A stretch of DNA of 64,000 bases from an uncultured Pseudomonadales bacterium (GCA_964398525.1 CAYNMS010000002.1:2403-66402); one strand, 5' to 3'. Shown: positions 6,964 to 40,181, counted from the stretch's first letter. The notes: generated by a model not told the origin, from the sequence alone. A program made the numbers and translations.

Positions 6964-8778
6964 CTAACGTTTGAGAACTGCAAGATAGGCAGATTGAGGG
7001 ATTTCGACTTTAGAAAAATGGCTGCGTTTAGTTTTGCCCTTTTTTTGCTTTTCAAGAAGTTTTTTTCTTCGAGTGATATCGCCTCCATAGAGTTTAGCGG
7101 TAACATCTTTACGATAAGCTTTAATGGTTTCGCGGGCGATGATTTGACCACCAACGGCGGCTTGAACAGGAATCTGGTGAAGAGTGCGGGGGATGGCATC
7201 TTTGAGTTTGGCAACGATATGTTTGGCGGTATCTTGGACTTTGGAGGAATGGAGAATTTGAGAAAGAGCTTCGACAGGCTCGTGATTGATTAGGACTGAG
7301 AGCTTGACGGCGTCGACAGGCTGATAATCGAAAAGTTCGTATTCAAGACTGGCATAACCACTGGATAGGGATTTTAACTGGTCGTAGAAATTTATGATGA
7401 GTTCGGAGAGGGGGACGAGATACTCAAGTTTGACTTTTTGGCCATAGAAGGTTTGATTAATCATTTCGCCACGAGCATCGTTTAAAAGGTTCATGATGGC
7501 ACCAAGATATTCATTAGGAGTATAGATAACCACTGAGGTTAATGGCTCTTGGATTTCGCGAATGAGATTGGAGTCGGGAAGTTCTTCAGGGTTTTTGACT
7601 TCGAGAGTTTGGCCGTCGGTGGTAGTTACCCGGTAAACCACGGTGGGGGTGGTGGGGATTAGATCGAGCCCGTATTCGCGTTTGATGCGCTCCAGGACAA
7701 TTTCTGCGTGAAGTACCCCCAAGAAACCGACGCGGAAACCTTTACCTAGCGCAAGGGAGCTGGAGGGCACAAACGAAAGTGAGGCGTCGTTGAGGGCTAG
7801 TTTTTCTAAACCTTCTTTTAGGAGTGAAAATTCTTTACCTTCAAGAGGGTAAATATCCATGAAAACAACCGGTTGAGGGTCTTTGTATCCGGGTAAGGGG
7901 GTTATTTGAGAAAGGGAAGCAAAATGGGTAATGGTATCTCCTGGACGGACGAGTGAGACATCCTTGAAACCAGTGGCAATGTAACCAACTTGACCAGCTT
8001 GGAGTTGATCGACTGGCTGCATTTGAGGGGTAAAAATTCCAAGTTCCTTAACCGGAAACGACTGCTGATTATTAAACAGACTGACTTCATCTTGGGAGCT
8101 GAGGAACCCTGATTCGAGTTTGACGAAGGCAATGACGCCTTTGTGAGGATGATATATAGAGTTGAACACCAGACAACGCAAGGGATCTGAAATTGCACCT
8201 GAGGGAGCGGGGATGGCGGTGGCTAGAGCAGCAAAAAGGGCGTTGATGTTGGTTCCGGTTTTGGCTGAAATGGAGACAATGGCTTGGGAGTTGAGACCGA
8301 GAGTGTCGACTAAGTCCAGGGTTACGGCCTCTGGATCAGCAGCCGGGAGATCGATTTTATTTAAAGCAACGATGAGGTTTAGACCAAGATTTTTGGCTTT
8401 TTGAAAATTGGAGAGAGTTTGAGCTTGGATGCCTTGGGTGGCATCGACTAAGAGAACCGCACCTTCGCAGGCGGCGAGAGAGCGGGAAACTTCATAGCCA
8501 AAGTCGACGTGACCGGGAGTGTCGATGAGATTTAAGTTTAGCTGGGGGTAACCCAGACTCGAGACAAGGTCAGGTGGCAGAGTGTAGGTGAGACTAACGG
8601 GAGCGAGTTTGATGGTGATCCCCCGCTCTTGTTCGATAGGGTTGCTGTCTAAGAGGCGCTCGTGGAATTGTCGCTGACTAATAGTGTTGGTTGCCAAGAG
8701 GAGTTGATCGGTAAGTGTGGTTTTGCCGTGATCGATGTGAGCGATGATGGAAAAGTTACGGATTGAAGATTGATTCAT
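6964..8778 (-). CDS. lepA: Elongation factor 4 (LepA)
   Basis: 604 aa. IRNFSIIAHIDHGKTTL GTPase and the LepA-specific C-terminal domain. Confidence 0.92.
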   Translation of the reverse strand: MNQSSIRNFSIIAHIDHGKTTLTDQLLLATNTISQRQFHERLLDSNPIEQERGITIKLAPVSLTYTLPPDLVSSLGYPQLNLNLIDTPGHVDFGYEVSRSLAACEGAVLLVDATQGIQAQTLSNFQKAKNLGLNLIVALNKIDLPAADPEAVTLDLVDTLGLNSQAIVSISAKTGTNINALFAALATAIPAPSGAISDPLRCLVFNSIYHPHKGVIAFVKLESGFLSSQDEVSLFNNQQSFPVKELGIFTPQMQPVDQLQAGQVGYIATGFKDVSLVRPGDTITHFASLSQITPLPGYKDPQPVVFMDIYPLEGKEFSLLKEGLEKLALNDASLSFVPSSSLALGKGFRVGFLGVLHAEIVLERIKREYGLDLIPTTPTVVYRVTTTDGQTLEVKNPEELPDSNLIREIQEPLTSVVIYTPNEYLGAIMNLLNDARGEMINQTFYGQKVKLEYLVPLSELIINFYDQLKSLSSGYASLEYELFDYQPVDAVKLSVLINHEPVEALSQILHSSKVQDTAKHIVAKLKDAIPRTLHQIPVQAAVGGQIIARETIKAYRKDVTAKLYGGDITRRKKLLEKQKKGKTKRSHFSKVEIPQSAYLAVLKR

Positions 8779-8807
8779 GGAATGGGTATTTTACAGGCCA
8801 GCCAAGG

Positions 8808-10478
8808 TTAAAGAGAAGTGGAAGATTGATCCAGGGTTTCCTCAGAAGAAGAGAGGACTTTGCGCCAATTGCCGATTTTGGAAAGAAGCTTCAAGTAGGC
8901 GTTTAACTGCTGGACGCGCAGTAACTTGGAGAAAATAAAGTAAACCGAAAGACCGATTAAGCCGACGATAATTGTAAGGATAATTAGATCAATGGTACGG
9001 GTGGTATCGAAGATAAATTCATCTAAAAGGCGCATGGGGGCCCAGAGGAAAAGACCGGTGGCAGCTGAAGCAACGAACATTTTGAGTAAAGGAAGAAAGA
9101 GAGCATAGAGGTTGAATTGGCCCAGCTTAAAAATTAAGACAATTAATAAAAATGCGGCCTGGAAAAGAACGGCCAAGGTAGAGCCCCAAGCCATACCCAG
9201 GACACCTAAATTAAGAGTGAAAACGAAGTAGAACGAAAGGGCTACATCAATTATGACAGCCAAAAAAGTAGCCAGGAGGGGGGTTTTGGTGTTATGAAGA
9301 GCATAAAAAGCCCGGGCTAGAAGGTGGATAGCGGCGTGAGCAAAAACTCCTAGAGCCAAGATGGCAACGATTTTGCCGGTTAAAAGTGTAGCCTGCCAGG
9401 GGAAAGTTTTGGCGCCGTAGGCAATACGAACTGCGGGAATACGTAAAATGATGAGCATGACGGAGGCAGGTAAGGCAAGATAGAAGATTTGATGAAGAGA
9501 ATCAATTAGAGTTTGAGAGAAGCGTTTGAGATCCTTGGTAGCAGATTCTTGAGACAGGAAGGGCAGGCTCGCTTGGCCGATGGGAATACCAAAGATGCGG
9601 ACAGGAATATTCATAAGGGTGGTGGCCAGACGAACTAATGTCAAACTACCTACGGCTAAATTGGTGGCGAGGTAAATCATGACAAATGGCTGAATTTGTT
9701 CGATTGACAAAGCAGCGGTACGAGGCAGCATTAAGCGGATAATTTGGCGGACTCCAGGATGGCGTAGATTGAATATGGGCCGGTAGCTGAACCTGAGCCG
9801 GCCAGCTAATGGCACTTGCATCATCAAATGAAGGAAGGCACCTAGAACAACCCCAAAAGCCGCGCCATAAAGGCCAATAGTAGGCCCAAGAATAAGGGTA
9901 CCGAGAATAATGCCAAGGTTATAGGCCAGAGGGGAAAGGGCAGGGATTAGGAAGCGGTGGTTGGCTTGAATGATGCCGGTCATAAAATTACTGATAGCAA
10001 AAAAGAACTGGGCTAAAAGCATGATGCGGGTAAAATTGCTGGCTAGATGAACTTGCTCTTGGCTAAAATTTGATCCGGTGATGAGTTGGTTTAGAGGCTG
10101 GGCGAAAATAAAGATAGGAAAAGCCAAAACCAGGAATACCAAAAGGACAAGATTGATCATGGAATTGGCTACGAGATTGGCTTCATCGACACTTTTGTGA
10201 AGATACTTGGAGTAGACCGGAATAAAGGCAGCAGAGAGAGCGCCAATAACCAAAAGTTGAAAAATAAAGTCAGGCAAACGAAAGGCTACGCCGTAGGCGT
10301 CGAGAGCCGCTTGGTTTACCGGATGATTGTAGAACATGGACACCAGAAGACGTTCGCGCAACAGGCCAAGAATGCTTGAGAGGAAGTAAGCAGCTGTGAT
10401 AATGGCGGCGGCTGAAAGAATACTGGACTGTTGGCGCTCAAAAATGAGTTGGCCGTTTTTGAAAAGATGCTTAACCAT
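8808..10478 (-). CDS. murJ: Lipid II flippase MurJ/MviN
   Basis: 556 aa polytopic membrane protein with an MviN-like N-terminus. Confidence 0.8.
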   Translation of the reverse strand: MVKHLFKNGQLIFERQQSSILSAAAIITAAYFLSSILGLLRERLLVSMFYNHPVNQAALDAYGVAFRLPDFIFQLLVIGALSAAFIPVYSKYLHKSVDEANLVANSMINLVLLVFLVLAFPIFIFAQPLNQLITGSNFSQEQVHLASNFTRIMLLAQFFFAISNFMTGIIQANHRFLIPALSPLAYNLGIILGTLILGPTIGLYGAAFGVVLGAFLHLMMQVPLAGRLRFSYRPIFNLRHPGVRQIIRLMLPRTAALSIEQIQPFVMIYLATNLAVGSLTLVRLATTLMNIPVRIFGIPIGQASLPFLSQESATKDLKRFSQTLIDSLHQIFYLALPASVMLIILRIPAVRIAYGAKTFPWQATLLTGKIVAILALGVFAHAAIHLLARAFYALHNTKTPLLATFLAVIIDVALSFYFVFTLNLGVLGMAWGSTLAVLFQAAFLLIVLIFKLGQFNLYALFLPLLKMFVASAATGLFLWAPMRLLDEFIFDTTRTIDLIILTIIVGLIGLSVYFIFSKLLRVQQLNAYLKLLSKIGNWRKVLSSSEETLDQSSTSL

Positions 10479-13518: not shown

Positions 13519-14496
13519 ATGAAGAAAATTTTTGGCCAGATGAGAAGGTGGGTGACTGGGGGGTTAATATTGGTGCTGGCAGCGTGTGGAAGATTGGGAA
13601 TGGCCGGAGGTGACCAGGGGGCGCTTCAGGTGACGAGTAACGCCGCCTTTGGAGTGTATCTTAATGATAATTACGTGGGTCAAACGCCATTTTATGATGA
13701 AAAAATTGGGGTGGGAGAGTATGTGTTGAAGTTAGTACCTAATGGAGCAGAAGGGTCGGGGGTGTGGCAGACTCCAGTGATGGTGGACAACAGAGCCTTG
13801 AGCGTGGTGCATTATGAGCACGGTCGAAGAAGTGAATTATCCACGAGTGAAGTAATGGAGCTGGAGAAACTGCCGAATGAAGAGGGGGTGGAGTTGTCAC
13901 TAACAAGTATTCCCGACAACGTGGTGGTCAGACTTGACGAACAGGCGGTGGGGTTTTCGCCGGTTTTACTGGATGACTTGACTGAAGGGGATCATGTGTT
14001 AGCAATGGAGGCGGTAGGATATAAAACCAAAACAATTAACTTGAAATTGAATCGAGGTTACCGGCTCAACGTGGCGGTGCAGCTAGCCCGAGATGAAGAA
14101 ACAATGATAGAGAAAGTAGAACCGGTGACCGAGGCGACTGGTAGCGGTGAACTGCTGGAAGTGGATGAATTGCTATCCCCTTCTCCATCCCCTAGTCCAT
14201 CGATTCAGCCAGAAACGTCACCAAGTTCGGGATTTGGACAGGTGATAGGTGGAGTAATCACCGGTGCTGGAAATAATGAGTTGACAAAACCATATGTGGA
14301 AATAAGAGAGACCGGAACTGGATGGTTGAGAGTGAGAAGTCAGGCAGTGGTAGCTGATAATGAAGTAGCCAAAGTAAAAACGGGAACTTTTTTCCCTTTG
14401 GCGGTGGTGAGTAACAATCAAGAGTGGGTGAAGATTGAGTACCAAAAAGACAAAGAAGGATGGGTGAGTAAGTCGTTTGTGCGAATTGTGGAATGA
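13519..14496 (+). CDS. Lipoprotein with PEGA-like repeats, Ser/Pro linker and C-terminal SH3b-like domain
   Basis: Lipobox LVLAAC. Two PEGA-like segments. SPSPSPSPS linker. C-terminal KVKTGTFFPLAVVSNNQEWVKIEY. Confidence 0.6.
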   Translation: MKKIFGQMRRWVTGGLILVLAACGRLGMAGGDQGALQVTSNAAFGVYLNDNYVGQTPFYDEKIGVGEYVLKLVPNGAEGSGVWQTPVMVDNRALSVVHYEHGRRSELSTSEVMELEKLPNEEGVELSLTSIPDNVVVRLDEQAVGFSPVLLDDLTEGDHVLAMEAVGYKTKTINLKLNRGYRLNVAVQLARDEETMIEKVEPVTEATGSGELLEVDELLSPSPSPSPSIQPETSPSSGFGQVIGGVITGAGNNELTKPYVEIRETGTGWLRVRSQAVVADNEVAKVKTGTFFPLAVVSNNQEWVKIEYQKDKEGWVSKSFVRIVE

Positions 14497-14500
14497 AGAG

Positions 14501-15457
14501 TTAACTGAGCCAATAGATGATGGTGAAGGAGAGAAGTAGCCAGGTAAGGACAGCGGCAATGAGGGGCTCGTCTGACAGCAGGACCCGTTCGGGACTCTCG
14601 CCTCGATTTTGTTCGTAAACCAGTTGGAGGTAGCGCATAACGCCGTAGATGACTAAGGGAACGGTGGCCATCATCAGCTTTTCGCTAGTAAAAGTTCTAG
14701 GAAAGAGAGTGTAAAGAGACAACAGAAGACCTTGTGGTTTGACGGGTGAATAATTGAAAGAGAAAAGAGCGTAAGAAAGCCAAGTAGCGTTGGCAAACAT
14801 GCCGGTATAAATGTCCAGAAGTCGGGGGGTGTAGCGAGAAAGGGTTTGGCGGTGTCCGGTTAGGTCACCGACGGTACCCTTGAGGAGGGTGCGTTCGCTT
14901 TGGCGTTTACCCACAGCCAAGAAGAGGGAGACTGAAACTACGGTAAGCAAAAACCAAACGCTCATATGAAGGTTGACGACGAGGGCACCGGCATAGACAC
15001 GAAGGATAAAGCCAGCGGCGATGGCAAAGACATCTAATATGGGTTGGTGTTTGAGTTTTAATGAATAAAAAGTGTGAAGCAAAATGTAAAAAAGGATAAT
15101 GGCCAGGAAAAAAGTGGAAGTGGTCCAGGCTAAATAGATGCTGGTAAAAAAGCCGGCAATGGCAAAAAAGGTGGCAGCGGAGACGGAAAGATCACCTGAG
15201 GGAATAGGACGCTTTTTTTTGAAGGGGTGAAGTTTGTCTTGAGGGGCGTCGATAATGTCGTTGACGACATAGACACAGCTGGTAACCAAAGTGAAGATAA
15301 GAAAAGCCCAGGTAACACGGAGGAAATAGCCAGGTTCGAACATAAAACCAGAGAAGAAGAGGGCAGCAAAAAGACTAAGGTTTTTGAGCCATTGGCGGGG
15401 ACGAGCAGTGCGGACAAGGTAGAAAAAAGTAGAATGGGTGATGGTGTTAAGTTTCAT
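14501..15457 (-). CDS. UbiA-family polyprenyl-phosphate phosphoribosyltransferase-like protein (decaprenyl-phosphate 5-phosphoribosyltransferase/Rv3806c-like)
   Basis: RPRQWLKN...YVVNDIIDAPQDKLHPFKKKRPIPSG (NDxxDxxxD...RP motif), ~8 TM. Start moved to internal Met (cat 15455-15457) to limit overlap with the upstream gene. Confidence 0.65.
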   Translation of the reverse strand: MKLNTITHSTFFYLVRTARPRQWLKNLSLFAALFFSGFMFEPGYFLRVTWAFLIFTLVTSCVYVVNDIIDAPQDKLHPFKKKRPIPSGDLSVSAATFFAIAGFFTSIYLAWTTSTFFLAIILFYILLHTFYSLKLKHQPILDVFAIAAGFILRVYAGALVVNLHMSVWFLLTVVSVSLFLAVGKRQSERTLLKGTVGDLTGHRQTLSRYTPRLLDIYTGMFANATWLSYALFSFNYSPVKPQGLLLSLYTLFPRTFTSEKLMMATVPLVIYGVMRYLQLVYEQNRGESPERVLLSDEPLIAAVLTWLLLSFTIIYWLS

Positions 15458-16553
15458 GAGAGCGAGTGGCTTGAGTGAGATATTTAAGCCACAACAAGAT
15501 GCCACTAGTAATTAGGGCAGCTAGGGCTATTGTAAAGATTTTTTGGGCGCTGTTCAATTTGAGTGACAAAAGGCCAAGGACGAAAGTAGCAGCCCAGTAA
15601 AACAAAGCAATCTGTGGCCGGGACCAGCCTGAGTCAAGAAGGTGGTGATGGAGGTGGCCGCGGTCTCCCCAGACTGGAGACTTACCTTGATACACGCGCC
15701 TGATAATAGAAACGATAGCGTCGGTAGTGGGGATGGCGAGGATGAGAATCATGGCAGCAACTTTGGCTCCAGAAAGGATTGCCAAAATAGCGAGAAGAAA
15801 ACCGGCTAAAGTGCCCCCGCCATAACCGGGCATAATTTTTTGGGGGAAGAAGTTAAAAAGGAGGAAACCAGCGTAGGCTCCGGCGGTGATGGCAGCCAGG
15901 GAGGTGACCTCCCACTGAGTGATATCGGAAGAGAATCGAAGAGAGAATAAACCCATAAACACGGCGGCGATGGCCACAAACCCGGGCATTTGACCGTCTA
16001 AACCCTTGGACCAGTTGACGATGTTGGACATCCAGAGAATCCAGATTAGGGCAAAAAGATCTGAGATTACCCAAATGGTGCGGAGTTTGCCAAAAAGAAA
16101 GATGGGGATTTGGGGAGTGTTGAGATGGATTACGGAGCCAGGGGGGCCGAAAGGATTGGTGATAAACGCAATGCCGATACCAGCCCCAACGACAATCAAA
16201 GCGGCAACGGTAGTGGTAAGGAGACGCAGGTAAGGGGAAAGGTCATAGATATCGTCGGCTATACCGACAAGAGTGAGAATGAGGGCGGCGGTGAGAATGC
16301 CAACGAAATGCTTGTCTACACCCAAAAAGAAGAACCCGGCTATGGCCAGAGCGATAAAAATGGGAATACCTCCTCCGCGAGGAACCGGGTGGGAGTGAGT
16401 GTTTTTGAGGCGACTATGTTTAGCTGGGTCGTCTACCCAGCCCCGGCGGCGATAGAAGCCAATAACCAACGGAGTGAAGAAGGCGGTGAGAATAAAGGCT
16501 AGGATAGCGGGTAAAAGGAAAGTGGAGACAAGTATTGGCAATGAAGGAAACAA
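15447..16553 (-). CDS. GT4-family polyprenyl-phosphate N-acetylhexosamine-1-phosphate transferase (MraY/WecA family)
   Basis: PLVIGFYRRRGWVDDP N-terminus, DDIYDL, and NIVNWSKGLDG (NxxNxxDGxDG) motifs. Polytopic. Confidence 0.75.
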   Translation of the reverse strand: MFPSLPILVSTFLLPAILAFILTAFFTPLVIGFYRRRGWVDDPAKHSRLKNTHSHPVPRGGGIPIFIALAIAGFFFLGVDKHFVGILTAALILTLVGIADDIYDLSPYLRLLTTTVAALIVVGAGIGIAFITNPFGPPGSVIHLNTPQIPIFLFGKLRTIWVISDLFALIWILWMSNIVNWSKGLDGQMPGFVAIAAVFMGLFSLRFSSDITQWEVTSLAAITAGAYAGFLLFNFFPQKIMPGYGGGTLAGFLLAILAILSGAKVAAMILILAIPTTDAIVSIIRRVYQGKSPVWGDRGHLHHHLLDSGWSRPQIALFYWAATFVLGLLSLKLNSAQKIFTIALAALITSGILLWLKYLTQATRSHET

Positions 16554-16919
16554 TTAAAGAATGATGATTAAAACGTGGAAAAGGGCGATAGTAAAAAGAA
16601 AGGAGATTAAAGTGGAAGTGACGGCAAGAATTCGAGCAAACATGCGATCAGATTGGAAATGGATGCGAGACAACCAAATATGGGTGATGAGGAAAATGAG
16701 GGTGGCTAAAGGTAGAGCTAGAAGGAAGGGTTTTTTGGCAAGTTGTTCTGGGCCTCTGGCAAGAGAGTAAAAAATAGGGACTACGGGAGGGAGGCGATGG
16801 TAATGGTAGATGAGGGTGAGAGTAGAGGAAATTAGGAGGCCAAAAGACACGAAGAAAGAAGTGCGAACTATTGAATCACGTACAAAAGAATTAGTGGAAA
16901 AGTGATGCGGTCTGGGCAC
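16554..16919 (-). CDS. Small 4-TM membrane protein, possibly a GtrA-like lipid-linked sugar translocase
   Basis: 121 aa, ~4 predicted TM segments. Embedded between the GT4 and GT-C genes. Size and context resemble GtrA/Rv3789-type proteins. Confidence 0.3.
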   Translation of the reverse strand: MPRPHHFSTNSFVRDSIVRTSFFVSFGLLISSTLTLIYHYHRLPPVVPIFYSLARGPEQLAKKPFLLALPLATLIFLITHIWLSRIHFQSDRMFARILAVTSTLISFLFTIALFHVLIIIL

Positions 16920-16944
16920 AGAGGCATTATATCAAGAGATTCGG

Positions 16945-18489
16945 CTAGAGGCGTTTGTAAACCAGGGCGCGATGGCCTTGATTTGCCTGGGCAGAAAGGC
17001 CGGGGTCGCCAATTCGCTCCACAAGCAAATAACTAGTGTCGATATGGGCTTGTAACTCTGGAAAAGGCAAGGGTTCGTTTTCCATGATGACGATGGCAGC
17101 TGGGGGATTGGCTTCTAAATGATTGAGAGTGGTTTGGTAGTAATCCAGGTCGTTAACATGAAAGGAAGTGACGAGTTTGGTGGCGGGCAGGCGATTGGAC
17201 ATGACGTAAACCTCCGGGTCATTGCCCCAAACGTAGATTTTTTCTCCCGGTAGAGTTAATTGCCTGAGTCGAGTGGCTAAGGCATAGTTACGGGGAACCC
17301 GACGATCAAAAGTACGATAGAAACTGGTACGGTCGGCTTGACCGGTGATATAGGTAAAGAAATGGCGATAGTAAGGAACAACACTCCAAAATGAGAAATT
17401 AAAACGGACAAAAGAGGCTAAAACTAGAGTGATACCCGCTAGCGAAAGGACTCGGATCAATCGGGAAGGGTGGAGGAAAAGATAACCGACAACTAAAAGG
17501 AATGGAGCAACAACTTGGAGGAGATAGTGGGGATAAGGACGGGCAGAGAGTAAGGCGGCAAAGAGAGAGCTAACGAGCCAGAAGAGAGAGAAAGTGACGA
17601 AGGGAGGAAGGCGGCGGCGGGAGAAATATAAAAGAAGGATAAAAGTAAGCCAGAGCAGAATTCGAGCGGTAAGGCTGCCAAAGAGGAGATATTGAGTGAG
17701 GAAATCAGAAGCCTGCCAAACAGAAACATAGCCAGCACTACCGGTGGCGTTAAAAATTAAAGAAAGGGGAGAGACGCCTAAAATGGCCAAGAATATCACA
17801 GCGATAACCACGGGGAGGGCGAGGCCAAGGACAAAGAGGTGGAAATGTCGATTGGAAATAAGGTGCTTTTGTAACTCCTTGAGGGAGTGGGGAAAGAAAT
17901 AGAAGAAGGTGGTGATGGCAATAATATCTAGGGCGGCATGTATTTTGAAGAGGAAAGCTAGTGAGAGAAGTAGGCCGGAGACAAAATGGAAAGAGGGGCG
18001 GGTGGTAAGCTGCTGGCGGCGACCAGGTTTAGTGGTAAGAAGAACTAAGGCTAGCAAAACTAGAACAATAAAGAAGTTTTCTGCATTGGCAATGGTGCCT
18101 TCAATGATGGGAGTGGAGGTGAAAAAAACAAAAGCCAGTGTGAGGAAAAAAGCCGAAGATAAGGAGAAAAGGCGACGAGAGAGGATAAAAAAGCAGGAAG
18201 TACCCAGGAGGGTGGCCAGGATTAAGATGAGGCGAAGGTTAGTGACATGGGTGGCAAGGGCGGACAAAAGATAAATGGCAGGGGGTTTGTTGGGGAAGTC
18301 GGTGATTTGGGAGTAAAGAACCTGACCGTGACGGATGCCGTGACCGATGGCTAAGTAGATATTTTCGTCACCGTACCAAAATGGCTCAAAAAGAGAAGGC
18401 AGACGAAGGATAACGACCAAAAGGAGAAGGAGAAGGAGATATTCGTGTTGGTTTAGATAACGATTGAATTTGGCCAAGAGAGCAAACAT
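16945..18489 (-). CDS. GT-C fold membrane glycosyltransferase (ArnT/PMT_2-like, GT39/83)
   Basis: 514 aa, more than 10 TM. WYGDENIYL in the first loop (DE motif). Confidence 0.7.
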   Translation of the reverse strand: MFALLAKFNRYLNQHEYLLLLLLLVVILRLPSLFEPFWYGDENIYLAIGHGIRHGQVLYSQITDFPNKPPAIYLLSALATHVTNLRLILILATLLGTSCFFILSRRLFSLSSAFFLTLAFVFFTSTPIIEGTIANAENFFIVLVLLALVLLTTKPGRRQQLTTRPSFHFVSGLLLSLAFLFKIHAALDIIAITTFFYFFPHSLKELQKHLISNRHFHLFVLGLALPVVIAVIFLAILGVSPLSLIFNATGSAGYVSVWQASDFLTQYLLFGSLTARILLWLTFILLLYFSRRRLPPFVTFSLFWLVSSLFAALLSARPYPHYLLQVVAPFLLVVGYLFLHPSRLIRVLSLAGITLVLASFVRFNFSFWSVVPYYRHFFTYITGQADRTSFYRTFDRRVPRNYALATRLRQLTLPGEKIYVWGNDPEVYVMSNRLPATKLVTSFHVNDLDYYQTTLNHLEANPPAAIVIMENEPLPFPELQAHIDTSYLLVERIGDPGLSAQANQGHRALVYKRL

Positions 18490-18550
18490 AGCATTAGCAT
18501 AGCAAATTGTGGCGTGAGTGGCTATTAATAACTAGGACTTAACTGGAGTT

Positions 18551-20050
18551 TTATTTGGGAGAAACTTTCTCGGTGACACGATATTCGATGTAGCGGCCCA
18601 GCATTAGGCGAGTGTGGGCGTCTAAGCCAGGAAGAGCAGAGAAAAAGAAGCCAATGATGGGTAGCAGGAAAAACTCTAAGGGTTGGAGAAGTTTGGTGAA
18701 GATAGAAACCTGGTGAGGCCGGGGAGGGCGATTTTTGGCATCAATGAGAATGATGATAAACATTGAAAGAAGGGACAAGGTAAGAATGGTACTGGAGACT
18801 TGAGGGAGGGTTTTGCCCATGATGGTACGGGAGAATTCGGGATTGAGAAGTGGAGGGAAAAAGGCGCCCACGGTGATGGCAAACCAATTGACTGGCCAGA
18901 GGAAGTGGTCTTCAATGACTTTTAAGACTCGTACAGTTTTGTCCCAAAAAGGAACTCCGGGGACAGTTAAGTATTGGCGAATAATGTAGGCATCGTCGCT
19001 AACTCCCCAAGCCCAACGTTTGATTTGTTCATATTGATTTACCATGCTGGCCCAAAAACCATTGGCTTGAGCGGCGTCGGCATAGACGGGAAGGAATAAC
19101 GGCTCGACTTCCAGATCGCCTTTAAAGTGAAAATAAGCCTTGAAGAAAAGCCGATAATCCTCGGGAATGACGTCGGTATCCCAGTAGCCAATTTCATCAA
19201 TCATTTTGAGGCTGGTGGAGTAGGTAGAAAAGTTGATCAGCCGGTCACGACGCATAAGGATAAACATTTGAGTGACCGAAAAAATTGAAGCCAGGACTCG
19301 AACCGGGGCGGGAACCTGCCATATATTGTTGTAAAAAGTAATGGCAGCCTGCCAGATGCGGCGGTAGCGATGGGGGTGATTCAAAAACTCGAAAGTGAGG
19401 GCAGAGAAATACTGGGAATCAAGCAGGGCGTCGGCATCTTGACTGGTAATGGTGACCAAGTTAATATCAAAGCCTTGTTGATCGATGAGTTTTTGTTTGG
19501 CAAGTTTGGCGCCCCAAGCGGTGTTGCTGCTTTTACCTTTGACTTCATTTTTAATGTCAGGATGGTAGGTAGTCCAAAGGTGACCAAAGTGGTGAGAATA
19601 TTTTTTGACTAGGAGTTTGGCTTTTTGATGGGCCGACTCCCCTTCTCGCTCTTCAAAAGAAAGCATGAGATGAAGGTTTTGGGTTGGATAGCTTTGTCCA
19701 GCTAAGTTAGCCAGGGTACGCTCGAGTGTCGGCAGCGGTTCTTGGTAGGTGGGAATAACGATGATGTGGTGGTATTGATCCCAAGCGGATTTGGTTTTTA
19801 GATCCGCGAGCCAATCATTTTTTCTTGAGGCTTGGATGCGCATGTGAGCAAAGACGGCAAGGAAAGCGACGGACAGAGAGCGGTATAGCCAGTAAACCGA
19901 AAAGGAAATGATATAGTAGGCAACCACTTCGGGAATAAGGATCGAACCCCAGACTGGGAAGAGAATGAGAAACCAAGAAAAAAGCCCTGGCAGAATTTCG
20001 AGAGCACGTTGGGTACGGACGGGATGGCGGCGAACATAGGAACTGACCAT
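18551..20050 (-). CDS. Processive family-2 glycosyltransferase (cellulose/chitin-synthase-like)
   Basis: QDADALLD (D,D,D) and QIKRWAWG (QxxRW) motifs. N- and C-terminal TM segments. Confidence 0.75.
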   Translation of the reverse strand: MVSSYVRRHPVRTQRALEILPGLFSWFLILFPVWGSILIPEVVAYYIISFSVYWLYRSLSVAFLAVFAHMRIQASRKNDWLADLKTKSAWDQYHHIIVIPTYQEPLPTLERTLANLAGQSYPTQNLHLMLSFEEREGESAHQKAKLLVKKYSHHFGHLWTTYHPDIKNEVKGKSSNTAWGAKLAKQKLIDQQGFDINLVTITSQDADALLDSQYFSALTFEFLNHPHRYRRIWQAAITFYNNIWQVPAPVRVLASIFSVTQMFILMRRDRLINFSTYSTSLKMIDEIGYWDTDVIPEDYRLFFKAYFHFKGDLEVEPLFLPVYADAAQANGFWASMVNQYEQIKRWAWGVSDDAYIIRQYLTVPGVPFWDKTVRVLKVIEDHFLWPVNWFAITVGAFFPPLLNPEFSRTIMGKTLPQVSSTILTLSLLSMFIIILIDAKNRPPRPHQVSIFTKLLQPLEFFLLPIIGFFFSALPGLDAHTRLMLGRYIEYRVTEKVSPK

Positions 20051-27914: not shown

Positions 27915-28949
27915 TTAAAGAGGAAAACGGGAGCGGAAACGAAGATATTTCCAGCGGAGACGGTCGAGTTTGGTGAAGAGATTGTAACGGGAAGGTTGCC
28001 AAACGTAGTCATAGGTACCAACAAATTCCATGAGAGTACCACCATAACCTTCTTTGAAACGGTGAAAACCGTACCAAGGATCGCTGGCGTCTGGATGGGG
28101 CCCAAGAGAGCCCCAGAAATCAAAGAGGGTACAGCCCTTAGAGAGACCAAAACGGATTGCTTCCCAAGCGAGTAGGTTGTTGGCCATAACATCCCGGTGT
28201 TGGCGGCTGCTGGCACCGTAGGGGTAGTAAAGAGTGTGGTTGTGTCGAAAAAGGATCCAGGCGCCGAGAGTTTGATCTTGATAGACAGCTTTGAGAAGAT
28301 GGGCCATGCCAGCGGAATGGAGATGTTGCCACATAAGCCGATGGTATTTTTCTGAGTGGGAGTAAAACTCCTGACGTGAGGTGGTTTGACGCCAAAGATC
28401 TAGGTATTGGTTGAAGCCAGTTTCAGAATTATCTTCAACGACGGTGACGCCTTTTTTTTGAGCGAGCCGAATGTTGTAGCGGGTTTTGCTTTTGAGATTG
28501 GCAAAAAGGGCGTCTTCACCTGGGGTGAGATCGAGGATAAAGCTAAAAGGGGTAAACATCGGCCGGCCGGCGACGTGATTATGTTCCTGGAGAAATTGCC
28601 GGGCGGCCTTGATGTCGGCTGAAGGCGAGTCAACTGGTGAGTAAAGATTGGGCTCGTTTTTGATGTAGATAAGATTATGTTTTTCGGCGGCAGTTTTGAG
28701 GGCAAAAAGTTGGGCATCATCGGGAAAGCCGGCTTTGGGGAGATAGCCCAATTTCCAGCCAAGACGGGGTATTTGATGAATGGTGATTTGAAAACTTTGA
28801 AGGATATTGGGGCCATCGAAAAGAGCAAGGCGTAAAAGATCGGTGCCGGTAGCACGGCGAAAGTCTCCCCAAGCCCAGGTTTGGAGTGGATGAGTGGCGA
28901 CAGAATCAAATTTGGCTTTTTCTTGAAGGAGAGGTTCTCTGATGAGCAT
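27915..28949 (-). CDS. FemAB-family peptidyl/aminoacyl transferase (peptidoglycan interpeptide bridge formation)
   Basis: 344 aa. Recalled S. aureus FemA alignment: KTRYNIRLAQKKGVTV aligns with KRNTKKVKKNGVKV, and LYYPYGASS...FDFWGSLG...GFHRFKEGYGGTLMEFVGTYDYV aligns with VYYAGGTSN...YNFYGVSG...GVVKFKKGYNAEIIEYVGDFIKP. Confidence 0.7.
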   Translation of the reverse strand: MLIREPLLQEKAKFDSVATHPLQTWAWGDFRRATGTDLLRLALFDGPNILQSFQITIHQIPRLGWKLGYLPKAGFPDDAQLFALKTAAEKHNLIYIKNEPNLYSPVDSPSADIKAARQFLQEHNHVAGRPMFTPFSFILDLTPGEDALFANLKSKTRYNIRLAQKKGVTVVEDNSETGFNQYLDLWRQTTSRQEFYSHSEKYHRLMWQHLHSAGMAHLLKAVYQDQTLGAWILFRHNHTLYYPYGASSRQHRDVMANNLLAWEAIRFGLSKGCTLFDFWGSLGPHPDASDPWYGFHRFKEGYGGTLMEFVGTYDYVWQPSRYNLFTKLDRLRWKYLRFRSRFPL

Positions 28950-28961
28950 AAGTCGATTGTA

Positions 28962-29606
28962 TCATGGCCTCTGGTGACGATGAGTAAGGAGACGGAACAA
29001 AGCTTGAAATGACCTTTTTATACCCAAAAGGAGAAGAAGAGCGTCTGAATGAGGCGAGGCGGTTTGGAGATAGAGAAGTTCTGATTGGAGGCGTTTATCC
29101 AGTGATGGCAGAGGTAGAAAGCGGATTGCCGGTGATATGAGTCCAGGCCGGACGGTGAAACGGGCACGGGCTTTGGAGGGGAGTTTTTTGGATTGGCTGG
29201 GCTCGAGAGGACGGGGACCAATTAGACTCATATGGCCGGAGAGAATATTGAAAAGCTGAGGGAGTTCATCTAAGCCCGTGTGGGAGAGTAAAAATCCTAG
29301 ACGAGTAAAACGAGGGTCGTGGTGGATTTTAAACAAAGGAGGTTCGGCTTGATTGAGATGCTGATGACGCCAACGTTGTTGGGGAGCACCTTTGATCATG
29401 GTACGAAACTTGATTAGAGTAAAGGAGCGGGCGCGAAAACCTGTGCGTTTTTGACGAAAAAAAACGGGAGGGCCTGAAGTAATTAGAATTAAGAGAAATA
29501 GAGTTAAGAATGTTGGAAGTAAAAGGAGGATGAGGAGAACGGAAACTGAGAGATCGAAAATCCGTTTGGCGGGATGGCTGAGATAAGGTGAAAGAATTTG
29601 GGGCAT
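28962..29606 (-). CDS. Polyprenyl-phosphate sugar phosphotransferase (bacterial sugar transferase, WbaP/PglC C-domain type)
   Basis: N-terminal TM. KFRTM motif (LIKFRTMIKG). Size 214 aa. Confidence 0.65.
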   Translation of the reverse strand: MPQILSPYLSHPAKRIFDLSVSVLLILLLLPTFLTLFLLILITSGPPVFFRQKRTGFRARSFTLIKFRTMIKGAPQQRWRHQHLNQAEPPLFKIHHDPRFTRLGFLLSHTGLDELPQLFNILSGHMSLIGPRPLEPSQSKKLPSKARARFTVRPGLISPAIRFLPLPSLDKRLQSELLYLQTASPHSDALLLLLGIKRSFQALFRLLTHRHQRP

Positions 29607-31698: not shown

Positions 31699-32367
31699 AT
31701 GGAATATATTGTGGCAAATTGGAAATCTCACAAAAGCTTGGCTGAGGCTAAGGAATGGATGGAGGAAATGAGTAAATACTGGAGAGAGTTGTCTGAGAGG
31801 GAAGTGGTGGTAGCACCGCCGATGCCTTACTTGGAGCAGATGAGTGAATATAAAAAGTCTTTGACTGGAATGAAGTTGGCTTGCCAAGACTTATCACCAT
31901 TTCCTTTTGGGGCCTATACCGGAGCCGTGGCGGCAGCGATGGTGAATGATTGGTGTGAATATGCCATAGTGGGTCATTCTGAGAGACGAGCTTATTTTGA
32001 GGAAAAACACCAACAAATTGCCAATAAAGTTGAGCAAGCAAGAGAGGCAGGAATAAAGGCAATTGTGTGTGTGGATCGAGGATATGTGAAGGCTCAAGCA
32101 GCAGCGTTGGGAGAAAATATAGGAGAAATAATTGCTTATGAACCGTTGGAAGCCATTGGGACGGGATTGGCCCAAGATCCGGAGGAAGTTAAGAAAGTGG
32201 TGGCTGAAATTCGTCTGGTGGCAAAACCAAAAGCAATTCTTTATGGCGGAAGCGTGAATGCGGATAATGCTAGAGAGTTTTTAAAAATAGATGGGGTGGA
32301 TGGTCTACTGGTGGGAGGGGCGAGTTTAAAAGCCGAGAGTTTTGCCAGGATTTGCGGACTAGTGTGA
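31699..32367 (+). CDS. tpiA: Triosephosphate isomerase
   Basis: IVANWKSHKSL, VGHSERR, AYEPLEAIGTG motifs. Confidence 0.88.
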   Translation: MEYIVANWKSHKSLAEAKEWMEEMSKYWRELSEREVVVAPPMPYLEQMSEYKKSLTGMKLACQDLSPFPFGAYTGAVAAAMVNDWCEYAIVGHSERRAYFEEKHQQIANKVEQAREAGIKAIVCVDRGYVKAQAAALGENIGEIIAYEPLEAIGTGLAQDPEEVKKVVAEIRLVAKPKAILYGGSVNADNAREFLKIDGVDGLLVGGASLKAESFARICGLV

Positions 32368-33981
32368 AACAGAATAAATGGAGTAAGAGGGAGACTCGAG
32401 TAGGAGAGGAAATTGGCTGAAGTAGCTGAGATTGATTTCAAATGAAGCGTGTTCGGAAGGGCCGATAACCACATAATCGATTGAGTAGTGGTCTAGGAGC
32501 AAGGAGGCCTGGCTGGAACCGGAGTAGATATTGGCGATGTCTGTTTCTCTGGTGGTGTAGTCGAGGCCATAAGTCCAGAGCCAACCACGGTAGCCCATGA
32601 GAATTTGTCTGCCGGTGAGGGTGGGGATAAAGTGATTGTGTTGGTCGCTGGTGAGAATAACTGAGTCGGGGGAGGTAAGTTCTCGGACTTTGGAGGCTAG
32701 GTCTAATTCTTCATTCGTAAACATGGGGGTTTGGAGCTTTTCAAAATCCAGAAGGCGAAGAGCGTCGAGAAAACCGGAGAAGGTGAAAACAAGGAAAAGG
32801 AGGCTGAAAGCGATTAAACCAAGGCGTTTGGCTTGAAGTAGACGAAAAAGAAGAGTGGTGGCAGGCAGACTAAAGGCAAGGTAAATCCAGGTGAAGATTT
32901 TGGAATTGTCCCAGTCGTAGGGTTGGAAAAGAATTAGGTTTGATAAAAAGAAGAGAAAATAGAAGGGCAAGAAGAAAAGCTTTTGGCGCGAGGGGAGAAA
33001 GAAGTAGCCAACAAAAGAGGCGGGGAGAAACAAACCCCAGTTGATTAACCAAAACCAAAACCAGTTGATGTCTTTGCTTTTAGCTAGCCAGCCAGGATAA
33101 AGGCGGAAAAACGATTCAGAAGTACTAGGAAAGATGAAATGAGTGGCTAGAGGATAAGCGACAGAAAGACTGATAAAGGCGGTGAGCATCCAGTAGGAAA
33201 AAGGGTGGCGTCTGAGAGTAAGGAGAAATATCCAAAGGGTTAAGATAGCCATGACTATGGCGGTGTGAGCGTGGATAATAGGAAGGGGGCCAAGGAGAAG
33301 ACCGAGGACGAGAAAATGACGGAGTTTGACTTTGGTGGCAAAAATGCGCCAGAGGAGAGTGAGGATGAGTAGACCAGTGATTAGCCCCAGAAGAAAGGCA
33401 CGTTGAGGCACGAGCTCGCCCGAGATGATGTTGATCCATTCGATGTAATGGGAACCAATGTGAGTGTATTCCTGAGGCAAATGGGTGATGGTGGTCAAAA
33501 AGCCAGTCTGGGCAACGTCCTGGAAGAAATAAATAAAACCCAAACCACCACTGAAGAACCATAAAAGAGAGGCAACGAGCGCGCGGGAAAGAGAGGAAAA
33601 TTGGGAGTATACCCAAGGCAGGAGAAATAAAAGAATGAGGCAGAGAAAACCTCCGAGAAAATTCCAGGCCAGATGATGGGGAAGACCTAGACGAAGAAGA
33701 TAGCCGCCAAGCATATCCGCGACAAAAGAATAAGAAAAAGGGTGGCCGTAAAAAAGAGGGTGATTCAGGGGAAAAGTCGAGCGGAAAGCAAAAGCGCTCA
33801 TGTAACTTAGGTGAACAGCGCCGTCTGCCCAACTGCCCACCCACCCAGCAACAATACCAGTTGGGGTGGAGACTAATTGCCGGCTCCAAAGAAGGAGAAA
33901 GTAAAGAGAGCCTATCAGGGAGTAAACTAGGAGAAAGAGTTTGGAGCGGGTAAAAGTAAACTTGAGGCGAAACTTAGTCAT
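32359..33981 (-). CDS. Large polytopic membrane protein, possible GT-C fold glycosyltransferase
   Basis: 540 aa, more than 12 hydrophobic segments, periplasmic-loop Asp residues. No firm family. Confidence 0.35.
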   Translation of the reverse strand: MTKFRLKFTFTRSKLFLLVYSLIGSLYFLLLWSRQLVSTPTGIVAGWVGSWADGAVHLSYMSAFAFRSTFPLNHPLFYGHPFSYSFVADMLGGYLLRLGLPHHLAWNFLGGFLCLILLFLLPWVYSQFSSLSRALVASLLWFFSGGLGFIYFFQDVAQTGFLTTITHLPQEYTHIGSHYIEWINIISGELVPQRAFLLGLITGLLILTLLWRIFATKVKLRHFLVLGLLLGPLPIIHAHTAIVMAILTLWIFLLTLRRHPFSYWMLTAFISLSVAYPLATHFIFPSTSESFFRLYPGWLAKSKDINWFWFWLINWGLFLPASFVGYFFLPSRQKLFFLPFYFLFFLSNLILFQPYDWDNSKIFTWIYLAFSLPATTLLFRLLQAKRLGLIAFSLLFLVFTFSGFLDALRLLDFEKLQTPMFTNEELDLASKVRELTSPDSVILTSDQHNHFIPTLTGRQILMGYRGWLWTYGLDYTTRETDIANIYSGSSQASLLLDHYSIDYVVIGPSEHASFEINLSYFSQFPLLLESPSYSIYSVSH

Positions 33982-34054: not shown

Positions 34055-35308
34055 GTGAAAAAAAGGACAAAATTTTTACTGGGGTTAATTCTAGGGTTTG
34101 CTTTGGTAACAAGACTCTGGAACTTGAATTACCCGCAAAACTACTACTTTGACGAGGTTTATCATGCGTTTACGGCTGGAGCATATGCCCAAAATGACCC
34201 CAAAGGTTATGAATGGTGGCACACATCGGTGGTGGAGGGAACGGCTTATGAGTGGTTGCATCCACCTGTTTCTAAATTAATGATGGCGGTGTCGATATGG
34301 CTAATAGGGGATGAGAGTTTTGCGTGGAGATTTCCAGGAGCCTTGATGGGGGTAATAATGGTGGGAGTGTGCTTTTGGTTGGGGAAAGTTATTTTTGGGA
34401 GCAGAAGAGCAGGTTTGTGGGCGGGGGCAATTGCTAGTTTGGAAGGGTTACTTTTGGCTCAATCACGTATAGCCATGAATGATATTTATGTGACGACATG
34501 GATGTTGCTGGGGATAGGTTGGTATTGGAAATGGAGAAAAGAGGGTAGAAATAATTGGAAGGATTTGATGATATCAGCTGGGTGGTTGGGACTGGGGGTG
34601 GCAACTAAATGGTCGGGAGTATTTGCCCTAGGAACGGTGGGGTTATGGGAAATTATGGAGTTAATAGCAAATAAGGGTAAGCACTGGAGAAAATCGGTAG
34701 CTGGTGGGTTGATTTATTTGGTAGCAGCAGGGGGAATTTATATTGCTTCTTACAGCCAGTTTTGGTTACAGGGGCATACGTGGCAACAGTGGGTGGAACT
34801 GCATAAGCAGATTTGGTGGTATCAAACTAATTTGGAGGCAACTCATGCTTATCAAAGCACACCAATACAATGGTTATTGAATTTAAAACCGGTGTGGTAT
34901 TTTGTGGAATACAAAGAGAAGACTGTAGCCAATATCTATGCCCTAGCAAATCCAGCCATTGCCTGGGGAGGATTATTGGCGGCGGGATGGATGTTGTGGC
35001 AGGGGGTTAGGGCTAAAAAAAGAGAATACTTGTTTTGGTTGAGTTGTTATTTGTGGGTGTGGTTACCTTGGGTGGGTTCACCCAGAATAATGTTTTTTTA
35101 TCACTACACGCCGGCGATGGCATGGTTGAGTATTGGTATTGGGGAGAGTTTGGCCCGACTGGAAAAGACTAGTTGGGGGAAGTGGTTTGGGTTTACTTAC
35201 TTATTGGTGGTGATAGGTATGTTTGTTTTTTTCTGGCCGGTGTGGACTGGAGTGGCGGTACCAACAGAGTGGAGCAAGTGGTTCTTTTGGATATCAAGCT
35301 GGAAATAG
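34055..35308 (+). CDS. GT-C glycosyltransferase, protein O-mannosyltransferase/ArnT-like (PMT_2, GT39/83)
   Basis: YYFDEVYHAFTA DE motif in loop 1. 417 aa, ~11 TM. Confidence 0.7.
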   Translation: MKKRTKFLLGLILGFALVTRLWNLNYPQNYYFDEVYHAFTAGAYAQNDPKGYEWWHTSVVEGTAYEWLHPPVSKLMMAVSIWLIGDESFAWRFPGALMGVIMVGVCFWLGKVIFGSRRAGLWAGAIASLEGLLLAQSRIAMNDIYVTTWMLLGIGWYWKWRKEGRNNWKDLMISAGWLGLGVATKWSGVFALGTVGLWEIMELIANKGKHWRKSVAGGLIYLVAAGGIYIASYSQFWLQGHTWQQWVELHKQIWWYQTNLEATHAYQSTPIQWLLNLKPVWYFVEYKEKTVANIYALANPAIAWGGLLAAGWMLWQGVRAKKREYLFWLSCYLWVWLPWVGSPRIMFFYHYTPAMAWLSIGIGESLARLEKTSWGKWFGFTYLLVVIGMFVFFWPVWTGVAVPTEWSKWFFWISSWK

Positions 35309-37636: not shown

Positions 37637-37639
37637 ACA

Positions 37640-39028: not shown

Positions 39029-39123
39029 AAATTCAGGATGACACGAAGTTATCACCATGAGAGAACTCAGGGCTGACTCCATGGTAACGGCTCAAGAGAA
39101 TTAACTCAATATGTCAAAATGTA

Positions 39124-40178: not shown

Positions 40179-40181
40179 GAA

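Follow-up and report, generated by a model that had tools for sequence, protein, structure and literature searches.

A conserved gene cluster with a predicted Rv3806c-type phosphoribosyltransferase and GT-C enzymes in a Microgenomates-type CPR genome

Described systems and the locus

Three-component extracytoplasmic pentofuranose glycosylation is known from Citrobacter youngae O1/O2 (ORF15-ORF14-ORF12), in which the logic of a polyprenyl-phosphate 5-phosphoribosyltransferase (PPPRS), a transporter, and a GT-C enzyme has been shown biochemically (Kelly et al., PNAS 2024, PMC11127046). In Pseudomonas aeruginosa, group IV pilins are modified with D-arabinofuranose by means of a PPPRS (PSPA7_6246), DprE1/E2 homologues, and the GT-C enzyme TfpW. 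The mycobacterial decaprenyl-phosphoarabinose/arabinan pathway was compared through Rv3806c, Rv3807c, DprE1/E2, Rv3789, the Aft/Emb GT-Cs, and WecA. In the ArnC/ArnT and GtrA/GtrB/GtrV systems, a polyprenyl-monophosphate sugar donor is formed inside and consumed outside, and the donor synthase is a GT2 acting on a nucleotide sugar.

The locus described here lies within a window of 64,000 nucleotides (the whole stretch of DNA analysed) that belongs to a Patescibacteria (Microgenomates-type) genome, i.e., to a CPR bacterium. An earlier sequence-only reading had called the genome low in GC, a description that does not agree with its GC content of 46% (0.46). The five consecutive minus-strand genes of that reading were recovered as open reading frames forming one cluster (14501-20050), listed here together with a more distant gene.

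14501-15457, minus strand: predicted polyprenyl-phosphate 5-phosphoribosyltransferase (PPPRS/DPPRS-type UbiA), from PF01040, NCBIfam DPPRS models, and an Rv3806c PDB match
15447-16553, minus strand: polyprenyl-phosphate N-acetylhexosamine-1-phosphate transferase superfamily enzyme (MraY/WecA family, GT4), from PF00953
16554-16919, minus strand: small 3-TM membrane protein of 121 aa, weakly DUF1648-like, from hydrophobic segments and orthologues
16945-18489, minus strand: GT-C fold glycosyltransferase (ArnT/PMT/PIG-M-like), from its multi-TM GT-C fold
18551-20050, minus strand: putative membrane-embedded GT2 of hyaluronan/cellulose-synthase-like architecture, from DxD, ED, and QxxRW motifs and fold
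34055-35308, plus strand: second GT-C enzyme (PMT family), from PF02366

With moderate confidence, we prefer to read the cluster as an envelope-glycan module that is conserved in Microgenomates-type CPR and would be built on a lipid-linked pentofuranose donor.

The predicted phosphoribosyltransferase and its partners

Counted from the ATG at 15457, the UbiA product comprises 318 aa (a GTG at 15505 opens the longest reading frame), contains VNDIIDAPQDKLHPFKKKRPIPSG, and consists of the UbiA domain only, without a fused HAD domain. PF01040 is matched with 75.6 bits against a cutoff of 34.2, and the top NCBIfam models are three decaprenyl-phosphate phosphoribosyltransferase models (225, 201, and 140 bits), with NF008977 at 225.2 bits against a cutoff of 234, i.e., 9 bits under the equivalog cutoff, and NF008978 at 201.5 bits against 207. 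Models for quinone, heme, chlorophyll, and GGGP prenyltransferases reach at most 55 bits, which leaves the DPPRS models ahead by at least 170 bits. The closest PDB relative is Rv3806c (8j8j, E 2e-31), 28 orders of magnitude ahead of the second, a DGGGP synthase (1.5e-3). Within the PRPP-binding set compared, R22, K28, Y70, N73, D77, K87, R90, Y138, and K143 of Rv3806c are shared without change by this protein and 80/80 orthologues, and these invariant residues include contacts to the ribose 5-phosphate (K28, Y70) and to the pyrophosphate of PRPP. The other residues of the set are replaced: Y157 by Phe, a replacement that also occurs in mycobacteria, Q135 by His (Q in 57/80 orthologues), and K208 by Gln (K in 40/80). 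In ordinary UbiA enzymes, the phosphoribose contacts of Rv3806c are not conserved (PMC10994848). Model scores, the top PDB relative, and the conserved PRPP site place the predicted enzyme in the DPPRS clade, apart from quinone and heme prenyltransferases, and bear out its earlier designation as an Rv3806c-type protein.

The start codon of the UbiA gene overlaps the stop codon of the upstream GT4 gene by 11 nt. The GT4 product matches PF00953 (E 5e-25), as expected from the WecA/MraY-type transferase proposed before, and scores 71.7 bits with the WecA model TIGR02380 against an equivalog cutoff of 326 and 45.1 bits with the MraY model against 192. A profile of its orthologues finds MraY (1e-15) and eukaryotic GPT (1e-6) in the PDB, and the product is best described as a predicted member of the superfamily only, neither a WecA nor an MraY equivalog.

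The 121-aa protein had been regarded as a 4-TM, GtrA-like protein, which had to be revised, as three rather than four hydrophobic segments are present in 63/69 orthologues, GtrA (PF04138) is matched by 0/69, and DUF1648 is matched by eight of the 69 (best 3e-5). The window copy has no match in Pfam or NCBIfam, and the family shows a conserved loop motif, QPxIPLFYSL. The small gene was left uncalled in one public annotation of a related locus (L081).

In agreement with the ArnT/PMT-like enzyme suggested earlier, the product of 16945-18489 is a GT-C superfamily member with an invariant D41-E42 motif past TM1, which puts acidic residues into the first loop on the outside. Its C-terminal part (about residues 371-514) forms an extracytoplasmic alpha/beta domain. 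The structures nearest to it (ArnT, PIG-M, PMT) belong to enzymes using polyprenyl- or dolichyl-monophosphate monosaccharide donors. AftA, AftB, and AftD are also among its structural matches, but it is nearer to ArnT, PIG-M, and ALG3 than to the mycobacterial arabinofuranosyltransferases; its fold does not by itself specify the donor, a point that weighs against the preferred reading. Two more GT-C enzymes had been proposed at 32.4-35.3 kb, and one of them could be retained: the product of 34055-35308 matches PMT (PF02366, 6.7e-24), PMT_4TMC (1.8e-14), PMT_2 (1.4e-11), and Pmt4 in the PDB (2.5e-7), whereas that of 32359-33981 has no family match. The PMT-family gene is 14 kb from the cluster here, and in 32/80 related loci its orthologue is the gene immediately behind the UbiA gene, in the same orientation.

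The GT2 carries the invariant residues D205xD207, E297-D298, and Q342xxR345W346, and Glyco_trans_2_3 is matched by 37 of its 52 orthologues. Its AF2 model (pLDDT 80) matches hyaluronan synthase (HAS; 7sp7, E 1e-9, TM 0.50) and BcsA (4.5e-8) in Foldseek over the full length, with a probability of 1.0 and a TM-score of about 0.5. These motifs and the modeled TM channel architecture are those of a putative processive-type membrane synthase, consistent with the QxxRW synthase named by the sequence-only reading. With hyaluronan synthase, BcsA, and chitin synthase it shares, besides motifs and fold, a GT-A domain framed by two TM helices on the N-terminal and several on the C-terminal side; it differs in an identity of only 11-15% at this TM-score and in having no PilZ or other regulatory domain.

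Gene order and competing explanations

Conservation of gene order was assessed in 80 related loci (neighbourhoods of ~20 kb), with rates counted in loci with enough flank. The GT4 gene adjoins the UbiA gene in 80/80 loci; of the other three genes, that for the small protein occurs in 74/78, that for the GT-C in 64/71, and that for the GT2 in 52/66, an order far beyond chance. The genes are tightly packed, with a 0-nt gap between the small protein and GT4 genes and a 25-nt gap between the GT-C and small protein genes. Where synteny is broken, the core adjoins other glycan genes, namely those for NTP_transferase, PMT_2, GT2, GDP-mannose dehydratase, GT87, and UDP-galactopyranose mutase. The housekeeping genes MetRS and TatD are syntenic as well, and adjacency in such compact genomes is consequently weak evidence for a single five-gene pathway. 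Within the neighbourhood, conservation is highest for the GT2 (median identity to orthologues of 67%, versus 41% for MetRS and 31% for the GT-C).

Several other explanations of the locus deserve consideration. A role of the UbiA homologue unrelated to glycans, as an ordinary prenyltransferase of aromatic compounds or lipids (for quinones, heme O, or archaeal-type ether lipids), could be argued from Pfam, in which only the general UbiA model is matched, and from some JGI records that call homologues '4-hydroxybenzoate polyprenyltransferase'. The model scores, the PDB match, and the invariant 5-phosphate contacts described above, however, effectively refute this at the sequence level, homologues also carry the NCBI name decaprenyl-phosphate phosphoribosyltransferase, and we regard the idea as highly improbable. 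More serious, albeit still unlikely in our judgment, is the view that independent modules are juxtaposed, with the GT2 producing a secreted polymer of its own, the MraY/WecA-family enzyme starting an unrelated glycan (e.g., a wall-teichoic-acid-like or protein-glycosylation precursor), and only the UbiA enzyme, perhaps with one GT-C, cooperating within the inherited synteny of a compact genome. The retained order of MetRS and TatD, the very uneven conservation of GT2 and GT-C, and the absence of the GT2 from 14/66 loci that retain the rest are in its favor. Synthase-type GT2 enzymes such as BcsA and HAS act without a lipid-linked primer, and the link of this GT2 to the other cluster genes is for that reason conjectural. 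On the other hand, the overlapping GT4-UbiA pair is never separated in the 80 loci, the GT-C and small protein remain with it through several rearrangements, and the genes that replace neighbours are again glycan genes.

The sequence-only reading itself pointed to an arabinan-like logic. In a true arabinan-type pathway, DprE1/DprE2-like epimerases elsewhere in the genome would convert polyprenyl-P-ribose to polyprenyl-P-arabinofuranose, and the GT-C enzymes would act as arabinofuranosyltransferases in the assembly of an arabinan-like polymer. Mycobacterial arabinogalactan synthesis indeed draws on the enzyme classes encoded here (DPPRS-type enzyme, WecA-family initiator, GT2, and GT-C), the GT-C has Aft enzymes among its structural matches, and in one related locus (L050) a UDP-galactopyranose mutase gene lies four genes after the UbiA gene. 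However, no DprE1/DprE2-type epimerase (FAD-dependent oxidase or SDR) was found in the 64-kb window or among the families recurring in at least 4 of the 80 neighbourhoods. DprE1/E2 homologues belong to the candidate modification system in known non-actinobacterial Araf systems, and an equivalent of GtrA/Rv3789 is lacking here. The arabinan part of the proposal found no support in this comparison, and we rate such a pathway as improbable. Since no epimerase is present in the window or recurs nearby, ribofuranose is the more economical donor sugar, and polyprenyl-P-ribofuranose is more likely to be the donor than the arabinofuranose form.

A proposed route and its place among known systems

For the preferred envelope-glycan module, the most likely role of the five genes, as predicted from their sequences, would be to charge a membrane lipid with a pentose (probably ribose) and to transfer this sugar to a polymer on the outer surface of the cell. 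Homology and the conserved PRPP site suggest that the UbiA-fold enzyme would move 5-phosphoribose from PRPP to polyprenyl phosphate at the cytoplasmic face. A phosphatase encoded outside the cluster would then strip the 5'-phosphate to yield polyprenyl-P-ribofuranose; the 64-kb window contains no HAD or PAP2 protein, and no 5'-phosphatase recurs beside the cluster. With no epimerase associated, the sugar most likely stays ribofuranose. The donor would next be flipped across the membrane. The 3-TM protein is the sole unassigned membrane protein of the cluster, but to give it this role, or an accessory one, is a guess. Apart from MurJ, 6 kb from the cluster, no MATE or SMR/GtrA transporter family of Pfam is found in the cluster or the window, and no known flippase recurs beside the cluster in the 80 neighbourhoods. 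Finally, the ArnT/PMT-like GT-C, in many relatives with the adjacent PMT-family GT-C, would pass the pentose on to an extracytoplasmic acceptor. Candidate acceptors are a glycan begun on polyprenyl-P by the MraY/WecA-family enzyme and a polymer extruded by the GT2, with Ser/Thr/Pro-rich surface proteins as an alternative.

As neither a phosphatase nor an epimerase nor a known flippase accompanies the overlapping GT4-UbiA pair, these two enzymes could also make an undescribed lipid-linked precursor that contains ribose phosphate. The 5-phosphate of polyprenyl-P-ribose-5-P could, for example, be retained as acceptor or linkage. That such a new precursor serves, together with the conserved GT2, a lineage-wide, essential wall polymer of the Microgenomates type is a speculative extension to which we assign little probability.

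The envelope-glycan module resembles the Citrobacter systems in a UbiA-fold phosphoribosyltransferase predicted to use PRPP, in the joint encoding of this enzyme with a GT-C predicted to move pentofuranose outside the membrane, and in ribofuranose as the default sugar without an epimerase. It differs in that the UbiA protein has no fused HAD phosphatase domain, a 3-TM DUF1648-like protein takes the place of the MATE/SMR transporter, the GT-C is ArnT/PMT-like, and the module is fixed beside an MraY/WecA-family enzyme and a synthase-type GT2. Whereas the Citrobacter systems are serotype-variable accessories, the module here seems to be part of the conserved core of its lineage. The mycobacterial arabinan pathway is similar in its Rv3806c-type enzyme with a conserved PRPP site and in combining GT-C transferases with a WecA-superfamily initiator and a GT2 within one genomic context, but no DprE1/E2, PAP2 phosphatase, or GtrA-like Rv3789 is found locally here, the GT-C shows no evident special kinship with the Aft or Emb families, and the host is a CPR bacterium. 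The P. aeruginosa pilin system likewise joins a PPPRS to a GT-C outside Actinobacteria, and a protein acceptor is conceivable here given that the second GT-C is of the PMT family; there, however, epimerases are present and the product is Araf, and a pilin acceptor is without support at this locus. Pilus genes and genes for Pro/Thr-rich surface proteins occur in the window, which fits a conceivable protein acceptor. The ArnC/ArnT and GtrA/GtrB/GtrV systems share the donor formed inside and consumed outside, but the donor synthase here is UbiA-fold and predicted to be PRPP-dependent, and the cluster has no GtrA homologue.

The clustering of an Rv3806c-type phosphoribosyltransferase with GT-C enzymes in a non-actinobacterial, reduced genome was thus correctly recognized by the earlier reading; the UbiA homologue falls among the DPPR synthases, and its pairing with GT-C enzymes is kept in related genomes. 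The implied novelty has to be qualified, because a phosphoribose synthase paired with a GT-C outside Actinobacteria has already been published (Kelly et al., PNAS 2024, PMC11127046), which makes the CPR cluster a variant and no new principle. It is a conserved, previously undescribed CPR variant of a scheme known from tuberculosis bacteria and some Gram-negatives, and hitherto undescribed for the CPR group.

Gene layout and the UbiA-family enzyme

The gene-dense window (46% GC) contains, at 14501-20050, a head-to-tail run of five minus-strand ORFs, which the sequence-only reading had described; they are listed here in the order of transcription.

18551-20050, minus strand: membrane GT2 with invariant DxD, ED and QxxRW motifs
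16945-18489, minus strand: predicted GT-C superfamily enzyme, recognized by orthologue matches, fold and an Asp-Glu pair, with no family match of its own
16554-16919, minus strand: small 3-TM protein with the loop motif QPxIPLFYSL common to its family
15447-16553, minus strand: MraY/WecA-superfamily enzyme (PF00953), here called GT4
14501-15457, minus strand: UbiA-fold enzyme, matched in Pfam by the general UbiA model only

Judged against its orthologues, the UbiA gene most likely starts with the ATG at 15457, which gives the same length of 318 aa and makes an 11-nt overlap with the stop of the gene before it; the remaining intergenic spacings are 0, 25 and 61 nt. Promoter and terminator scans returned matches at chance level only and do not define an operon.

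Three NCBIfam models for decaprenyl-phosphate phosphoribosyltransferase score 225, 201 and 140 bits against the UbiA protein, the first two slightly under their curated cutoffs, and a fourth match, PRK08238 (148 bits), is a 482-position model of which the C-terminal UbiA part alone is matched. Models for heme O synthase, chlorophyll synthase, 4-hydroxybenzoate prenyltransferase and GGGP prenyltransferase reach at most 55 bits. The top solved structure is Rv3806c, the phosphoribosyltransferase of M. tuberculosis (8j8j, E 2e-31), followed by DGGGP synthase at 1.5e-3, and CPR homologues carry the name decaprenyl-phosphate phosphoribosyltransferase at NCBI. The residues by which Rv3806c holds PRPP have been given in its structure paper, including phosphoribose contacts that are absent from ordinary UbiA enzymes (PMC10994848). 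When Rv3806c, the window protein and 80 orthologues were aligned, R22, K28, Y70, N73, D74, D77, D81, K87, R90, Y138, K143 and R207 (Rv3806c numbering) were identical in 81/81. Three positions differ in the window protein: Y157 is Phe, a replacement found in mycobacteria too (PMC10994848), Q135 is His (Gln in 57/80 orthologues) and K208 is Gln (Lys in 40/80). From model scores, best structure and conserved PRPP residues, the sequence thus gives good support for a polyprenyl-phosphate phosphoribosyltransferase that uses PRPP; on the same grounds, a quinone or heme prenyltransferase was rejected.

Partner enzymes and conserved gene order

The GT4 product scores far under the equivalogs of both WecA and MraY, while in the PDB its orthologue profile matches MraY as well as the eukaryotic GlcNAc-1-P transferase. 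It was rejected as the true MraY of the genome (MraY model score 45 bits, cutoff 192), and its DRGHLHH motif is closer to that of WecA/TagO than to the PxHHHFE of MraY. At 27915-29606, a FemAB-family peptidyltransferase adjoins a small Bac_transf polyprenyl-phosphate hexose-1-phosphate transferase, which is a second, independent glycan-initiating enzyme of the window.

For the GT2, the GT-C and the small protein, profiles built from orthologue alignments matched nothing in the PDB, and fold-level evidence was therefore needed. For the 16945-18489 product, several lines point to the GT-C superfamily: PMT is matched by 13/65 orthologues, homologues are annotated as GT39 or ArnT family, the best Foldseek match of its AF2 model (pLDDT 94) is ArnT, and an invariant Asp-Glu pair follows TM1 throughout the family. 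The GT2 has no Pfam match at E<=0.01, although it is the best conserved gene of the whole neighbourhood; Glyco_trans_2_3 is matched by 37/52 of its orthologues, and its model (pLDDT 80) aligns over the full length with hyaluronan synthases and BcsA. Its family comprises about 400 representatives at E <1e-30, one relative being labelled Chloroflexota. The small protein had been taken for a GtrA-like protein of 121 aa, a label that fails on the orthologues: three hydrophobic segments are seen in 63/69, DUF1648 is matched by 8/69 and GtrA by 0/69.

The comparison of gene order covers 80 loci, all CPR by content, from a scan limited to one genome for each species. Along the direction of transcription it reads MetRS, TatD, GT2, GT-C, small protein, GT4 and UbiA.

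Occurrence of the core genes in the 80-locus set (counts other than that for the GT4-UbiA pair use only loci with enough flank)
GT4 adjoining UbiA: 80/80 loci
Small protein: present in 74/78 loci
GT-C: present in 64/71 loci
GT2: present in 52/66 loci

In one public annotation the small 3-TM gene was left uncalled (8646-8967 of the related locus L081), despite the ORF family being present in 74/78 loci. The GT2 orthologues have a median identity of 67% to the window copy, those of UbiA 57% and those of the GT4 52%; the values for comparison are 61% (GAPDH) and 41% (MetRS). A PMT-family GT-C directly follows the UbiA gene in 32 loci, its window orthologue being 34055-35308. Beside this PMT gene, 32359-33981 encodes a 540-aa multi-TM protein with relatives in only 2/80 loci; it had also been labelled a GT-C, which finds no backing in Pfam or NCBIfam (no match in either) or in hhalign against the GT-C family (4% probability).

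Where the surroundings of the core differ, its neighbours are again genes for glycans: a nucleotidyltransferase occurs in 13 loci, a PMT_2 GT-C together with a GT2 in 9, GDP-mannose dehydratase-type enzymes in 8 and a GT87-like protein in one locus (L033). In another, L050 (CAZEEI010000002.1), 13777-14946 encodes a UDP-galactopyranose mutase (PF03275, 1.4e-57), four genes downstream of UbiA and next to a sugar nucleotidyltransferase and dehydratase/epimerase-like ORFs, which suggests that at least one relative combines galactofuranose with pentofuranose chemistry.

All relatives of the window belong to the Microgenomates group within the Patescibacteria (Woesebacteria, Pacebacteria, Chisholmbacteria, Shapirobacteria and other MAGs). 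About half of the related loci bear the record title 'uncultured Pseudomonadales bacterium' and single ones Vitreimonas sp. or Limisphaerales bacterium; as gene content and synteny are those of Microgenomates-type CPR, the public records seem to carry wrong taxonomic labels. The window also shows extreme strand asymmetry, with a plus-strand GC skew of +0.31 overall and 0.09-0.46 across all 2-kb bins. It does not depend on gene orientation, the skew at third codon positions lying between -0.48 and -0.63 in genes on the minus strand and between +0.38 and +0.51 in those on the plus strand, and it is common to only the four closest relatives (L001, L002, L003 and L032), the other 76 CPR loci lying at about -0.05. 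From the position of dnaA (62042-63427), with rpmH/rnpA/yidC diverging from this gene, the leading strand would be the C-rich minus strand, contrary to the usual rule. Further along, 56353-59382 encodes a 1009-aa protein with a DUF4012 domain, whose N-terminal 300 aa have no Pfam match and resemble by eye a degenerate Rossmann (epimerase-like) fold.

A putative pentofuranose route and its relation to known systems

The best-supported reading of the cluster, for which we infer all catalytic steps beside the observed families, folds and synteny, is a lipid-linked pentofuranose route. The UbiA enzyme would convert PRPP to polyprenyl-P-ribose-5-P, a phosphatase encoded elsewhere would remove the 5-phosphate, and the lipid-linked donor would be flipped across the membrane, where the ArnT/PMT-like GT-C would move the sugar onto an acceptor on the outside; in many relatives the adjoining PMT-type GT-C may take part as well. 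In the 64-kb window, where essentially every ORF was scanned with Pfam, there was no DprE1-type FAD oxidase or DprE2-type reductase, no PAP2 or HAD phosphatase, no PRPP synthase and, besides MurJ, no MATE, SMR or GtrA protein. Clustering of all ORFs in the 80 neighbourhoods (about 20 kb each) likewise gave no recurrent DprE1/DprE2-type, phosphatase, PRPP synthase or MATE/SMR/GtrA-type family. Because no epimerase is associated with the cluster, the donor sugar would most simply be ribofuranose, and the arabinose proposed from the sequence alone was an over-reach.

Candidate acceptors are a GT4-primed glycan, Ser/Thr/Pro-rich surface proteins and the polymer of the synthase-like GT2. Among the products of 35310-39082 and 47447-49297 are several large proteins, secreted or anchored, with long Pro/Thr/Ser-rich linkers and Cys-rich repeats: two lack a Pfam match, one has Fn3 and Big_13 domains, and one is a solute-binding protein whose proline-rich N-terminus measures 190 aa; PilN/PilO-like genes lie at 39516-40784. 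These products are possible O-glycosylation acceptors for the PMT-type enzymes.

A GT-C paired with an Rv3806c-type synthase is already known outside Actinobacteria. Kelly et al. demonstrated the pairing biochemically for Citrobacter O antigens; they also cite the pilin arabinosylation system of P. aeruginosa and list further candidates, accompanied by MATE or SMR transporters, from Burkholderia, E. coli, Rhizobium, Xanthomonas, Bacillus and a phage, while CPR bacteria go unmentioned (PMC11127046). Full-text literature searches found no paper tying decaprenyl, DprE1 or DPPRS to CPR/Patescibacteria, and the 'lipocone' paper names UbiA and Patescibacteria in unrelated contexts. Unlike the systems of Kelly et al., the CPR module is without known transporter and phosphatase parts and has a conserved 3-TM protein instead; its synthase gene is always paired with a MraY/WecA-family gene, and the module adjoins a highly conserved synthase-type GT2. 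The observation behind the sequence-only reading largely stands, as does its pathway logic, shorn of arabinose and GtrA and with a smaller novelty than it implied.

Implications for the CPR envelope

The envelope of CPR/Patescibacteria mediates attachment to host cells, and its chemistry is almost unknown. The enzymes of this module are conserved like core metabolic genes, and they lead to the testable prediction of a pentofuranose, probably ribofuranose, surface glycan on many Microgenomates-type bacteria, and with it to what may be a lineage marker or labelling handle. The recently defined polyprenyl-phosphoribose route would thereby extend, without its known flippase and phosphatase, into a large section of the bacterial tree that has not been cultivated.
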